From a virus (taxonomy: Duplodnaviria; Heunggongvirae; Uroviricota; Caudoviricetes), in the IMG/VR virus record IMGVR_UViG_2700989486_000022: a stretch of 6,117 nucleotides of DNA; one strand, 5' to 3'. Every line of letters starts with the position of its first letter. Positions within the stretch are counted from its first letter, which is position 1. Below, piece after piece: positions 1,903-6,117 of this stretch. Under the pieces are notes generated by a model. It was given only the letters and a program-made list of their open reading frames with translations, did no database searches and was not told the DNA's origin. The position numbers and the translations under genes were made by a program.

Positions 1903-2156
1903 CTGCGTGACTCCTGTACCTGTCGGATAAGGTTCACCTGCACCACGTTGGTGGCGCAGAAGTAAGTGTCGTCAGTGAGATAAATGTGATGCGCGTCAGG
2001 TTGCGAACGGTGACGGTCGAGCGTTTTAATCAGCCGTTCGTCAACTTCGTATTCACGCCCTCTGGATGTGAAACGAATGACGGAAAAACGCTTATTGCCA
2101 TTGCGCCCCCTTTGTCCAGTAACCCTATGCGTTAAATACGGTGCGCTGTGCGTCAT
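1899..2156 (-). CDS. hypothetical basic protein (85 aa from ATG at 2156; the ORF track starts one codon earlier at TTG 2159)
   Basis: Open frame overlapping the 3' end of the 136-aa gene by about 30 nt; no clear Shine-Dalgarno; several rare Arg codons near the start, so less certain than its neighbours. Confidence 0.45.
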   Translation of the reverse strand: MTHSAPYLTHRVTGQRGRNGNKRFSVIRFTSRGREYEVDERLIKTLDRHRSQPDAHHIYLTDDTYFCATNVVQVNLIRQVQESRR

Positions 2157-2535
2157 CAATGAATGCGACTTGAGAGCGCTCTATCAGGCGGAGATTTGTC
2201 AGAATTTCTGATTCCCTTATGGGGTGAGGAGTGATCAGGTATTTATCCTGTAATCCGACGATAATGGTGTATTGCTGTGGCTCCGAGCCAATTGTGTAAA
2301 TAAGGCGTCCGGTGTTAGACAAATCCAGTCCGGTGACTGGTTGTGTTCTGAGAACCGTTAGTTCAGCATCCTGTTTTTCGATAATTTCGGCTGCTTCGGC
2401 GGTTACTCTTGCTATCATCATGGCTGTGGTGGCAGGCCCAATCATTCCTGCATTTGTTGCATCCTGAATGGCTCTGTTTGCGGTCTCCGATATATTTTTT
2501 AGCGCAGTTATAATGCCTTTTTCTTTTGCGTTCAT
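2125..2535 (-). CDS. hypothetical protein (136 aa)
   Basis: ORF-track ORF; ATG at 2535 with GGAGA about 6 nt upstream; no family recognised. Confidence 0.65.
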   Translation of the reverse strand: MNAKEKGIITALKNISETANRAIQDATNAGMIGPATTAMMIARVTAEAAEIIEKQDAELTVLRTQPVTGLDLSNTGRLIYTIGSEPQQYTIIVGLQDKYLITPHPIRESEILTNLRLIERSQVAFIDDAQRTVFNA

Positions 2536-2628
2536 TTTTGTATCTCCATTATTTACGTGTGTGAATGCCTCCGTTAATTCGGATGGTTTTCACGTTTTCT
2601 TATTTAATCTGGTGTTTTATTTGTGCTG

Positions 2629-2742
2629 TTATTCGTCAGAGAAAAAACGCTCAATCTTTTTCACTGAATGAATAATTCGCATAATGCCAATAGCGCAGAT
2701 CACCGAAATAATCAGAATAAGCCACGAAATAAATATACTCAT
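2629..2742 (-). CDS. candidate small hydrophobic (single-pass membrane) peptide, 37 aa: MSIFISWLILIISVICAIGIMRIIHSVKKIERFFSDE
   Basis: Not in the ORF track (too short). Hand-translated: ATG at 2742-2740 overlaps the TGA stop of the 80-aa gene (ATGA), GGGGAA about 6 nt upstream, TAA at 2631-2629. Hydrophobic core followed by a charged tail. Sits in a visibly AT-rich segment. Confidence 0.35.
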   Translation of the reverse strand: MSIFISWLILIISVICAIGIMRIIHSVKKIERFFSDE

Positions 2743-2981
2743 GCGATATTCCCCAGCTTATACGGTTCAATGTGTTCCCCGCATTCTGCGGCACAGATCA
2801 GCTCGGAAAGTTCGTTAAGTGCATCCAGATCATCAGCGTAAAAAGCAACGTCATACAAACTCCGGATTGCCCTGGTCAATGAGTCACGGGCTGCACGTTC
2901 AGCATGAGCGCCTGATGCACTTAAGCGAAAATAAAAACGCTCAAGTGCTTTGTTAATGAGAGTTTTATATTCTTTGCCCAT
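2739..2981 (-). CDS. hypothetical protein (80 aa)
   Basis: ORF-track ORF; ATG at 2981, AAAGGG about 8 nt upstream; 11-nt gap after the preceding gene. Confidence 0.6.
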   Translation of the reverse strand: MGKEYKTLINKALERFYFRLSASGAHAERAARDSLTRAIRSLYDVAFYADDLDALNELSELICAAECGEHIEPYKLGNIA

Positions 2982-2992
2982 CGCAACGCCCT

Positions 2993-3280
2993 TTAATCTG
3001 CTTTCTGAATTTCAGTTTCTGAATCCATACAAATAATTTCGATATAGGGTTTATCGCCATTAGCCTGGCGTGCCTTTTCAGCTTCACTAATGATTTCTCG
3101 TACGGTCTGGTACGGAAGTTCCACAAGCAGTCGCGTGCCGTTCAGATAAACGTAAGTGGCTTCGTTGGCTCCGTTTTTACCCGCCGGAGCCACTCCATCA
3201 ATAGCGGATGCGCGTAATAACAGTTCACCGCGAAAATCAATAAAACGGATAAATACACCTTGTGCATGCTCTTTGGTCAT
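2993..3280 (-). CDS. hypothetical protein (95 aa; start taken at the internal ATG 3280 rather than the ORF-track start 3340)
   Basis: ATG at 3280 has AGGTG about 6 nt upstream and begins 10 nt after the stop of the 116-aa gene; the longer ORF-track version would overlap that gene by 50 nt. Confidence 0.6.
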   Translation of the reverse strand: MTKEHAQGVFIRFIDFRGELLLRASAIDGVAPAGKNGANEATYVYLNGTRLLVELPYQTVREIISEAEKARQANGDKPYIEIICMDSETEIQKAD

Positions 3281-3290
3281 AACGCACCTG

Positions 3291-3641
3291 TTATAAATCA
3301 GCCTGTTTAATAAAACTTTGCCCGCGAAGCAGACGATCAACCGTGCGAAGTGCTTCGTATAATGTGAAATCCTGCCCGAATTGATTGTCGCCGCAGCTCA
3401 ATGCAAAAATGCGGTTTCCGGTAAACGGATTGCGTGGGCATTTGTGGACCACGATCCCGGCTTTCTCAATCAGCCAGGCATGCTCGCCGATTTGTTTTAC
3501 TGGGTAGCCATCCGGCGTTGCGTGTGTTTCGCTCAGGCTGTAGCGAGAGCTGCTACGTGATGCGCTGGTAGCGAAACGGTTAGCATGACGTTCCGCCCCG
3601 TTGCGGAATCGCTGCTGTGAAGAATTGCGCCGTTCCTTCAT
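3291..3641 (-). CDS. hypothetical protein (116 aa) with Arg/Ser-rich basic N-terminus
   Basis: ORF-track ORF; ATG at 3641 with GGAG about 12 nt upstream; 37 nt downstream of the cox-like stop; N-terminal 35 residues are low-complexity basic (RRNSSQQRFRNGAERHANRFATSASRSSSRYS). Confidence 0.6.
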   Translation of the reverse strand: MKERRNSSQQRFRNGAERHANRFATSASRSSSRYSLSETHATPDGYPVKQIGEHAWLIEKAGIVVHKCPRNPFTGNRIFALSCGDNQFGQDFTLYEALRTVDRLLRGQSFIKQADL

Positions 3642-3678: not shown

Positions 3679-4104
3679 TTATGCTGCTTTACCGCTGATA
3701 TTTCTGTTTCGTCTGCCACTTGTTGGCTTAAACAAAAACAGACGGTTTTCCCAGTCGTGCCATTCCTGAGGTGCGTTTTCGATGAGGCGATCGCATGCTT
3801 CATCCCACGCTTTTCTGTTGATGTAGAGTTCAGCGTTTCCGCCAGGTTTAAGAGGGTCCGCCATATACACCGCAGGTAGCTTTCCTGCTTTGGCCATGCT
3901 TACGATGGCATCAACGGTCTTTCCGATATACATCGCAAATCCTTCTTTTGACAGGAGATGCGAGGGATTTTCTGAAAGTCGAATTTCTTCACGTTCACGT
4001 GCTTTGCGTCCTGTTTTTTGATGCTCACCTTCTGGCATTTCTGACAGGTGATCGCATCGTGTTCCGCAAAGTGACTCAGGCGCGTTTTGAGTGCTTTCTT
4101 GCAT
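3679..4104 (-). CDS. cox: Cox-like excisionase / early-operon regulator with an N-terminal extension (141 aa)
   Basis: First gene of the leftward operon, divergent from the C-type repressor as in P2. The C-terminal 85 residues (FAMYIGKTVDAIVSMAKAGKLPAVYMADP...WHDW) resemble my recollection of P2 Cox (FAKLIGK...GKLPVIDMTDP...DGW). ATG at 4104 has a strong GGAGG 7 nt upstream. An alternative internal start at 3933 (AAGGA upstream) would give 84 aa. Confidence 0.7.
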   Translation of the reverse strand: MQESTQNAPESLCGTRCDHLSEMPEGEHQKTGRKAREREEIRLSENPSHLLSKEGFAMYIGKTVDAIVSMAKAGKLPAVYMADPLKPGGNAELYINRKAWDEACDRLIENAPQEWHDWENRLFLFKPTSGRRNRNISGKAA

Positions 4105-4512: not shown

Positions 4513-4578
4513 CGGTTCACCAGGCATTTATTTCCCAGAGCTGTGATCAAGATGATGTTTTCATTGGAGGGCTTCCTT

Positions 4579-5574
4579 ATGTCGATTAAGAAGCTCGCTA
4601 ATGGCAAATTTTGTGTGGACGTGCGGCCTGCTGGATCAGAAGGAAAGAGATTCAGGCGGCGATTTGATACTCGTGGTGAGGCTGTTTTGTATGAGCGTCA
4701 TGTATTGCAGCATTACCACGACAAAGACTGGGTTGATAAGCCAACAGAACGGCGGTCGCTGAGGGAGCTACTGGATTGTTGGTGGTTGTATCACGGTAAA
4801 AATCATCCTTACGGTGCGATGGAGCGAGTGCGTATTGCTGCGGTCATTAGTGATCTTGAAAGTATTAATGTTACACGCAGTGATCAACTTACTCGTAAAA
4901 ACATAATTAATTATCGGTTATTGTTGCTTAACCGCGGAATAAAACAATCCACGGTTAATCGTTATTGCGCAATGATGAGTGGTTTTTTCACAAAACTAAT
5001 TGACGCAGAGGAATATTCTGGGGCTAATCCGTTTCATGATGTGAAAAAACTTAATATCAAACAGCCTGAAATGGCTTATTTGTATCATGAAGATATTCCA
5101 CGATTACTGGAGTTGTTATCTGGTGATGAATTAAAAGCCGTCTTGTTGTGTCTGGCAACAGGTGGAAGATGGAGTGAAGTTGCAAATATCAAGGGGGAGC
5201 ATGTTATTAGCGGCAAAGTCATTTTTATGGAAACAAAAAATGGGAAGCGTCGCGTTATACCTATATCGTCAGAACTGGAGTGCATGATTAAGACGAAGGC
5301 TACTGGTCGTTTAATTTATCCGAGTTATGCCGCTGTCAGAACGGCTATCAGAAAGGTGAGACCCGATCTTCCTGAAGGGCAGTCGATACATGTTTTACGG
5401 CATACCTTTGCCACTCACTTCATGATTAATGGCGGGAATATCATCACTTTGCAGAGAATACTTGGGCATAGCACTATTCAGCAGACGATGACTTATGCCC
5501 ATTTTGCACCAGATTATCTGCAGGATGCTGTGCGCTTTAATCCTGTGGCTGAGTTGTCCAGATATTGCCCATAA
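4579..5574 (+). CDS. int: P2-family tyrosine integrase (331 aa from ATG 4579; the ORF track begins at an upstream GTG 4543)
   Basis: N-terminus MSIKKLANGKF..VDVRP matches P2 Int MAIKKLDDGRYEVDIRP; catalytic-region motifs HVLRHTFATHFMINGGNIITLQRILGH and YAHFAP are present; GGAGG 8 nt upstream of ATG 4579. Confidence 0.9.
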   Translation: MSIKKLANGKFCVDVRPAGSEGKRFRRRFDTRGEAVLYERHVLQHYHDKDWVDKPTERRSLRELLDCWWLYHGKNHPYGAMERVRIAAVISDLESINVTRSDQLTRKNIINYRLLLLNRGIKQSTVNRYCAMMSGFFTKLIDAEEYSGANPFHDVKKLNIKQPEMAYLYHEDIPRLLELLSGDELKAVLLCLATGGRWSEVANIKGEHVISGKVIFMETKNGKRRVIPISSELECMIKTKATGRLIYPSYAAVRTAIRKVRPDLPEGQSIHVLRHTFATHFMINGGNIITLQRILGHSTIQQTMTYAHFAPDYLQDAVRFNPVAELSRYCP

Positions 5575-5700
5575 AATAGGACTAAATAAGCCCATTTAAG
5601 ACTATGTGTATTAATGTAACTAATTGATATATCAAAGGGAGGCCAGTGTGCTCTGCCTCCTTCATGTCACCTTCGGGTGGCGTTGTTTTATGCGATGTAT
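5575..5700. other. Candidate attachment-site / element-chromosome junction region downstream of int
   Basis: Non-coding; AATAAGCCCATTTAAG (about 5585-5600) resembles the P2 att core as I recall it (..AATAAGCCCGTGTAAGG..); hairpins GGAGGC/GCCTCC (5638-5643/5655-5660) and CACC-TTCG-GGTG (5668-5679) followed by a T-rich tract. The exact core and junction cannot be fixed without the other end of the element. Confidence 0.35.
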
Positions 5701-5865
5701 CTCGCGATTTTTTTTTGTAACTTTTCCATCTTTTGCTTTTCTCTCCGAGCCGCTTTCCATATCTGCAATCGCATAAAAAACTCTGCTGGCGTTCACAAAT
5801 GTGCAGGGGTAAAACGTTTCCTGTAGCACCGTGAGTTATACTTTGTATAACTTAAGGAGGTGCAG

Positions 5866-6117
5866 ATGCGTATTACCATAAAAAGATGGGGGAACAGTGC
5901 AGGTATGGTCATTCCCAATATCGTAATGAAAGAACTTAACTTACAGCCGGGGCAGAGCGTGGAAGCGCAGGTGAGCAACAACCAACTGATTCTGACACCC
6001 ATCTCCAGGCGCTACTCGCTTGATGAACTGCTGGCACAGTGTGACATGAACGCCGCGGAACTTAGCGAGCAGGATGTCTGGGGTAAATCCACCCCTGCGG
6101 GTGACGAAATATGGTAA
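5866..6117 (+). CDS. chpS: ChpS (ChpBI) antitoxin of the ChpB-ChpS toxin-antitoxin pair, MazE/AbrB-type (83 aa)
   Basis: Protein MRITIKRWGNSAGMVIPNIVMKELNLQPGQ... matches E. coli ChpS as I recall it; AAGGAGG 5 nt upstream of ATG 5866 (the ORF track begins at GTG 5860); stop TAA at 6115-6117. Confidence 0.9.
   Translation: MRITIKRWGNSAGMVIPNIVMKELNLQPGQSVEAQVSNNQLILTPISRRYSLDELLAQCDMNAAELSEQDVWGKSTPAGDEIW
6111..6117 (+). CDS. chpB: First codons of chpB toxin gene (ATG GTA A.., M-V-K), overlapping the chpS stop; truncated by the window edge
   Basis: ATGGTAA at 6111-6117 gives the ATGnTAA overlap typical of coupled antitoxin-toxin pairs; identification relies on established knowledge that chpB follows chpS, since only 7 nt are visible. 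Confidence 0.35.

Follow-up and report, generated by a model that had tools for sequence, protein, structure and literature searches.

A conserved 37-codon gene overlapping the DUF4754 gene in the early operon of P88-like Escherichia coli prophages probably encodes a small inner-membrane protein

Introduction

Small phage-encoded membrane proteins are a familiar group, and the peptide considered here is one of this kind. The closest named phage to the DNA under study is P88 (Xuanwuvirus, Peduoviridae), in which the corresponding gene product, gp07, is annotated as 'membrane protein' (YP_009113050.1). The operon position has a counterpart in phage 186, where two short overlapping genes, fil and dhr, stand after the switch genes and before the terminator tR1; according to the GenBank notes, fil blocks division and dhr inhibits host replication. 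Terminators are annotated at this same point of the early operon in both 186 (tR1, after fil-dhr) and P2 (a putative one, after gene B), and both consist of a 5-bp stem followed by GGGC(A)UUCUUUU, approximately 25–35 nt before the next gene. Searching the literature on phage 186 fil, dhr and tR1 brought up unrelated papers only, and searches on DUF4754, the peptide sequence, P88 and Xuanwuvirus gave no functional information.

Several better characterized groups of small proteins are comparable in size and character. The E. coli proteins AcrZ, MgtS, MgrB and CydX are 30–50 aa long and have one membrane helix, which makes helix-helix contact with a larger membrane protein, and the exclusion proteins Imm and Sp of phage T4 are made early. 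The type I toxins (Hok, Ldr, TisB, Ibs and ShoB families) are, like the present peptide, small and hydrophobic. Among phage proteins, Gp11 of PhiNM1 is a small early membrane protein that blocks division (PMC11237401), and gp56 of SP01, a small membrane protein of 9.3 kDa that acts during infection, does the same (bioRxiv 10.1101/2020.02.06.938217). Both bind the host inner-membrane division proteins DivIC/FtsL, and DivIC/FtsL and MurG are known targets of such small early membrane proteins of phages (PMC11237401; bioRxiv 10.1101/2020.02.06.938217).

Here we analyzed a 6,117-nt stretch of viral DNA, referred to below as the window, in which a 37-codon ORF had been picked out from the sequence as an unannotated gene for a small membrane-active peptide, lying in an AT-rich segment that might be an inserted moron or hold an internal promoter. 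By comparing this ORF with its relatives in other prophages and phages, we evaluated whether it is coding, what its product would look like and which function would fit it best.

Results

The window is the early operon of a P88-like prophage

The window covers the early (Pe) operon of an E. coli prophage of the P88-like type (Xuanwuvirus, P2-like; Table 1). A 501-nt query from it (2400–2900) matched with 100% identity a prophage beside chpS-chpB in E. coli BEC1-S17-ESBL-09, the gene layout is of the P2-family type, and the gene order matches that of P88. Beyond the gene for the 136-aa protein, more small genes follow on the minus strand, in the direction of a P2 gpA-type replication endonuclease.

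Table 1. Features of the window (positions in nt; strand as given in the analysis)
Feature	Position	Strand	Remark
Integrase	4543-5574	+	
ChpS antitoxin	5860-6117		beside prophage end
Helix-turn-helix repressor (C repressor), 99 aa	4213-4512	+	
Cox family protein	3679-4104	-	
DUF4761	3291-3641	-	
Hypothetical protein, 95 aa	2993-3280	-	
DUF4754 gene, 80 aa	2739-2981	-	Pfam PF15946, E=2.8e-54
Shine-Dalgarno-like GGGGAA	2749..2754	-	inside end of DUF4754 gene
ATGA start/stop overlap with DUF4754 gene	2739..2742	-	read from sequence; expected to give translational coupling
37-codon small ORF	2629-2742	-	
Predicted transmembrane segment, codons 3-21, IFISWLILIISVICAIGIM	2680..2736	-	mean hydropathy 2.84
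93-nt spacer	2536..2628	-	51% A on minus strand; longest spacer in this part of operon
Stem-loop GUGAA..CC.UCCG-AAUUAA-CGGA.GG..UUCAC	2561..2593	-	MFE -8.5 kcal/mol, z=-4.2
136-aa protein, next gene after spacer	2125-2535	-	

The small ORF overlaps the DUF4754 gene and is already present in databases

The small ORF consists of 37 codons and a TAA stop, and its product is MSIFISWLILIISVICAIGIMRIIHSVKKIERFFSDE. Its ATG (2742–2740) overlaps the TGA of the 80-aa gene (2741–2739), giving ATGA, and the ribosome-binding-like GGGGAA (2754–2749, minus strand) lies 6 nt 5′ of this ATG; both had been read correctly in the original prediction, as had the hydrophobic stretch (mean Kyte-Doolittle hydropathy of 2.84 for residues 3–21) followed by a charged tail, and the untranslated 93 nt between the ORF and the next gene. 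Since the start codon and the Shine-Dalgarno-like run are both inside the upstream gene, the small ORF has no 5′ UTR of its own. The description of the gene as unannotated was wrong, as RefSeq WP_044860301.1 (hypothetical protein) is the identical ORF (100%), and one member of the family is named 'Prophage membrane protein' in UniRef. The existence of the gene is therefore not new; it is already in databases as a hypothetical or membrane protein. Full-length similarity to annotated members places the peptide in the P88 gp07-like family: gp07 matches it at 33 of 37 residues, differing at four, and its gene likewise follows DUF4754 and overlaps it by ATGA.

The AT-rich segment was confirmed (GC of 0.33–0.35 over approximately 2500–2750, compared to 0.45–0.55 in the flanks). 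The GC contents of the small ORF at the three codon positions were GC1 0.32, GC2 0.29 and GC3 0.39, the last being equal to that of the neighbours (GC3 of 0.36–0.41 in the three upstream genes). The low GC is thus confined to the first and second codon positions, showing that the AT-richness reflects an amino acid composition rich in Ile, Phe, Lys and Ser. The AT-rich patch is not an insertion. Besides its base composition, which is not foreign, the ORF stands beside DUF4754 in 103/103 loci and in 14/14 phage records and is never absent, it has no conserved promoter of its own among the sequences scanned, and the hairpin downstream is common to the whole gene block, so that a moron is not supported.

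The internal promoter suggested for the spacer was not borne out either. The sole sense-strand match in the spacer, TTAACG-18-AATAAT (2577..2548), was found in the window only among the 11 representatives scanned, and we rejected it because the resulting leader would be approximately 6 nt long, without the ribosome-binding site of the next gene. Directly upstream of the small-ORF start the promoter scan gave no match, and the nearest sense-strand promoter-like match (2956..2928) was found approximately 190 nt upstream, inside the DUF4754 gene.

Comparative data indicate that the small ORF is coding

With 90 ORFs of 25 aa or more in the window, an ORF of 37 codons could by itself be due to chance, and its conservation has to decide. 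The frame was intact in 103/103 related loci, of which 85 copies were 37 aa, 11 copies 41 aa and 7 copies 45 aa in length. Among close relatives, the numbers of variable columns at the first, second and third codon positions of the small ORF were 9, 4 and 15, with a mean pairwise dN/dS of 0.17, whereas the spacer had 57 variable columns out of 93 without periodicity. Across all comparisons, dN/dS of the small ORF was 0.09–0.2.

More distant relatives were reached via diverged DUF4754 proteins and the 41-aa peptide variants. Between the window and the two most distant relatives (L096 and L099), 33–36 of 108 nt differed, 20–21 of them at third positions; for L096, 21 of 36 differences were at third positions (p = 0.002), and 12 amino acid changes were observed versus approximately 22 expected under random substitution. 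The dN values of the peptide against these two relatives were 0.22–0.26 with dS > 2, i.e. with synonymous sites saturated, compared to a dN of approximately 0.7 for DUF4754, which was computable for L099 only and not for L096 with its 81-aa DUF4754. Judging from these substitution rates, purifying selection acts more strongly on the small peptide than on the annotated DUF4754 gene beside it.

The signals for translation are likewise conserved. The ATGA overlap was kept in 11/11 diverse representatives, and it was also found in all called genes of the other fetched loci except L090, in which the gene caller missed the ORF, though it is present. The purine-rich Shine-Dalgarno-like run, located 6–10 nt upstream of the ATG, was kept in 11/11 representatives, including those with other residues at the DUF4754 C-terminus, and this speaks for selection on translation initiation. 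Comparison of the conservation of the ORF with that of the nucleotide sequence, to which the original prediction had pointed, thus favours coding, given the intact frames, the low dN/dS and the third-position bias.

Frame-disrupting differences, named beforehand as evidence against the gene, were found to a marginal degree only: in seven of the 103 loci, a 1-nt deletion in a T-run at codons 33–34 exchanges the four C-terminal residues and lengthens the product to 45 aa, leaving the membrane segment untouched. The T-run is at 2638–2645 of the window (codons 32–34), and the deletion, present in L031, L032, L057, L072, L073, L075 and L078, recurs on at least three sequence backgrounds. These alleles may result from slippage, tolerated variation, decay or homopolymer sequencing error. 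The extreme C-terminus of the peptide may be dispensable, or the 45-aa alleles may be decaying. On the whole of these data, the small ORF very probably encodes a real, translated small membrane protein. For annotation, the ORF should be kept as a gene for a small membrane protein, and it shows neatly how comparative analysis alone can settle whether a very small protein is encoded.

The family is narrow but widespread in E. coli

By nucleotide search, at least 80% of the ORF was found in 1343 of 5426 complete E. coli genomes, including O157:H7 strains, and 'hypothetical protein' was the annotation in every E. coli genome among the matches listed. About a quarter of complete E. coli genomes thus carry a gene that has no family name. 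By their database names, members occur in Escherichia, Shigella, Salmonella and a Citrobacter rodentium phage. A profile search against 1.84 billion representative proteins gave 18 matches, all of which were members of the small-peptide family or frameshifted fragments, indicating a narrow family; four full-length matches whose loci were fetched adjoin DUF4754, and the rest were fragments, frameshift fusions or unplaced. A protein search with the 41-aa peptide variant retrieved close relatives only, and the one-genome-per-species scan gave at least two loci. The peptide had no significant family match and no detected homology to characterized proteins in Pfam, NCBIfam, PHROGs and PADLOC; in Pfam and NCBIfam, neither a significant toxin family nor similarity to AcrZ, MgtS, MgrB or CydX was detected.

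Long DUF4754 proteins of 109–128 aa were considered as possible fusions with the peptide, but they turned out to be frameshifted reads or assemblies. Such frameshifted read-throughs from DUF4754 into the small-ORF region were seen in P0001, P0004, P0016, P0022, P0033 and P0037, which derive from draft or Logan assemblies.

Two of the loci deserve separate mention. L003 (NZ_JBQPOM010000071.1, a 226-kb contig labelled 'Vagococcus sp. WN89Y') carries both the small ORF and a P88-type DUF4754 gene (98% protein identity); given the Gram-positive label, the assembly is probably contaminated or mislabelled. L099 and L100 come from one genome (GCA_946062945.1) and represent two P88-like prophages with diverged DUF4754/peptide pairs, whose peptides begin with MNIFISWLILIIAIICAVG... 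and MSIFMSWVVLVLAIIFAIG..., showing that the family tolerates co-residence of diverged copies.

The product is predicted to span the inner membrane once

The AlphaFold2 model of the peptide is one continuous helix over residues 2–35 (mean pLDDT 88), and this helix, together with the hydropathy of residues 3–21, predicts a single N-terminal transmembrane helix. The basic residues R22, K28, K29 and R32 are all located after the hydrophobic stretch and none before it, so the C-terminus would be cytoplasmic by the positive-inside rule, which is the sole basis for the topology. The N-terminus is thus probably periplasmic, with residues 3–21 spanning the inner membrane and the tail, which is basic and amphipathic, in the cytoplasm.

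Across 59 distinct members, M1, S6, W7, L10, I23, K28, I30 and F34 were invariant and G19, I20, I24 and E31 nearly so, and positions 15, 25, 29 and 36 were the most variable. Variability along the helix had a period of 3.5 residues (permutation p = 0.003, for one of five angles tested), pointing to one conserved helix face, to which S6, L10, S13, A17, I20 and I24 belong. Such a face fits helix-helix packing, as far as a post hoc test on closely related sequences can be read.

The spacer contains a conserved hairpin at a mosaic junction

The first 50–75 nt after the stop codon of the small ORF are conserved in all relatives and are followed by a mosaic junction; similarity breaks 10–15 nt after a hairpin, at the start of differing downstream genes. 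The hairpin thereby marks the mosaic junction. In the window, the inner hairpin is at 2570–2583 (minus strand), and its 3′ arm continues into GGAGG. Over 20 distinct sequences, the family hairpin, UCCGC-N4-GCGGA followed by GG, had 99% of its cells paired with a freely varying loop; its closing pair was changed from C-G to U-A, i.e. in a compensatory manner, in four sequences, and two G-U variants were also found. The sole unpaired cell was the A.A of the window's own copy, a mismatch compensated by the outer stem GUGAA/UUCAC.

As in a terminator, a G+C-rich stem is present (the conserved 4–5 bp inner stem UCCG(C)/(G)CGGA), but in the window it is followed by GGCAUUCACAC and not by a U-tract, and the terminator scan does not flag it, so the window hairpin is not a canonical terminator. 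This sets the P88-type hairpin apart from the terminators of 186 and P2, with the exception of the most distant relative, L099, in which the same hairpin (3159–3172) is followed by the T-run GGGUUUUGUU and was flagged as terminator-like; the sequence after the L099 hairpin is GGGTTTTGTT. By analogy of position, we suggest with moderate-to-low confidence that the spacer hairpin is what P88-type prophages have in place of tR1, its U-tract having eroded. Weak termination, pausing and processing are its possible roles.

Discussion

We propose that the small ORF would be translated by coupling to the DUF4754 gene directly upstream, within the early lytic (Pe) operon, and that its 37-aa product would be a single-pass inner-membrane protein with the basic amphipathic C-terminal tail in the cytoplasm. 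Since the C repressor should silence Pe in lysogens, the peptide would be made after infection or after induction and derepression. The hairpin in the A-rich spacer would close this gene block, as a weak or eroded intra-operon terminator of the tR1 type found in 186 and P2. Once in the membrane, the conserved face of the helix may pack against a conserved inner-membrane partner, most likely a host protein, and in this way a host membrane process would be modulated. Changes accumulate far more slowly in the peptide than in the adjacent phage protein DUF4754, which favours a host membrane protein as the partner, and the conservation of the peptide above that of neighbouring phage genes points to a conserved membrane target; a general constraint on any membrane helix could, however, be an alternative cause of the slow evolution. 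Among specific outcomes, our leading guess is that late cell division or envelope synthesis would be blocked. The role as a host-directed modulator is put forward tentatively, at somewhat below even chances, and the reading as a whole, in which a real coupled gene of the Pe operon encodes a host-directed inner-membrane peptide and is followed by a tR1-like spacer hairpin, we regard as moderately probable.

The described systems resemble this arrangement in different respects. The operon position is that of 186 fil and dhr, and in both cases two short overlapping genes behind the switch genes end in a hairpin with a 5-bp stem, some 25–35 nt ahead of the next gene block. Neither 186 gene has sequence similarity to the peptide, however, and Fil and Dhr, unlike the peptide, do not begin with a membrane helix. 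A resemblance of the peptide tail (IMRIIHSV) to the C-terminus of 186 Fil (IIRIVHFV) was not significant and was dropped. Gp11 and gp56 belong to phages of Gram-positive hosts and have no homology to the peptide, and gp56 is larger; that our peptide might be a division inhibitor of the gp56/Gp11 type is a guess from analogy. AcrZ, MgtS, MgrB and CydX are encoded by chromosomal genes and have known partners, unlike the prophage-borne peptide. Going one step further, the peptide might be a specific transmembrane-helix ligand of an essential, conserved enterobacterial inner-membrane machine, for which FtsW/FtsI/FtsQLB, MurJ, YidC and FtsH are candidates, and arrest the process early in lytic growth. 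We consider this version speculative and its chance low; if true, it would account for the much stronger conservation of the peptide compared to neighbouring phage genes and would offer a 37-residue natural inhibitor and probe, useful as a tool or an antibacterial lead.

The partner could instead be encoded next door, with the peptide serving as a membrane anchor or stoichiometric partner of the DUF4754 protein and its short cytoplasmic tail holding the helical DUF4754. The small ORF directly follows DUF4754 with the 4-nt overlap in every locus examined, the two co-occur in all of the phage records, and no fetched locus had the peptide without DUF4754 beside it; translational coupling would also deliver both products together. 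The AlphaFold2 model of DUF4754 is helical, with two helices, and a fold search with it against PDB and BFVD (E ≤ 0.001) gave no match and no functional clue. A tightly co-evolving pair is expected to change together, however, and the dN of DUF4754 (approximately 0.7) is far from that of the peptide (approximately 0.25); moreover, the tail available for holding a partner is merely about 13–16 residues long. An anchor for DUF4754 is therefore doubtful, though it deserves to be kept in mind.

A host-directed role also has to be weighed against action on other phages, namely superinfection exclusion or injection blocking by an early inner-membrane protein that prevents their DNA entry. The size of the peptide, its single predicted membrane helix and its early expression fit such a protein, but the Pe operon would be shut off by the C repressor in lysogens and would give them no protection, no PADLOC defence model matched, and exclusion genes are usually variable, whereas the peptide is unusually conserved. 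We consider this explanation improbable.

The type I toxin named as a model in the original prediction is unlikely. In its broader form, a type I toxin-like or holin-like pore former that depolarizes the membrane and is checked by an antisense RNA, the idea draws on the small hydrophobic peptide with its charged tail and on weak 9/12 promoter-like matches that we found on the antisense strand of the ORF in most relatives. These matches are absent in P88, and their -10 elements lie over ATT ATT or ATT ATG (Ile) codons, which may account for them; the free variation of third codon positions further argues against a constrained overlapping antisense RNA, and a search of Rfam gave no match within 2536–2742. 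Unlike the Hok, Ldr, TisB, Ibs and ShoB genes, the present ORF is coupled within an operon, has neither a promoter nor a long 5′ UTR of its own, and matches no toxin family, so we give a pore former very little credence. Finally, that the ORF is not a gene at all, but a chance ORF in AT-rich DNA, where hydrophobic ORFs arise readily and 90 ORFs are present in the window, a product of nucleotide-level conservation, or a moron with its own promoter, is scarcely credible and appears largely refuted by the comparative data, namely the always open frame, dN/dS of approximately 0.1–0.2, the kept Shine-Dalgarno-like run and ATGA, the GC3 equal to that of the neighbours, the constant presence of the ORF and the failure to find a conserved promoter.

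Other features of the window

Outside the early operon, a stem-loop, GGGAGGCCAGTGTGCTCTGCCTCC, was found directly after the integrase stop, within 5575–5860 at the prophage end next to chpS. At the other end of the window, a search of Rfam gave two strong matches, C4 antisense RNA at 531–618 (80.5 bits) and isrK at 654–728 (64.3 bits), both on the minus strand and upstream of a 76-aa ORF at 244–474. The P88 homologue of this 76-aa ORF is annotated as 'derepression protein', and RefSeq names the window copy a hypothetical protein. RefSeq also places a partial 'ash family protein' pseudogene over approximately 516–785, which may be a mis-call of the C4/isrK RNA region. This region resembles a P1 immI-like RNA switch, here in a P2-like phage.
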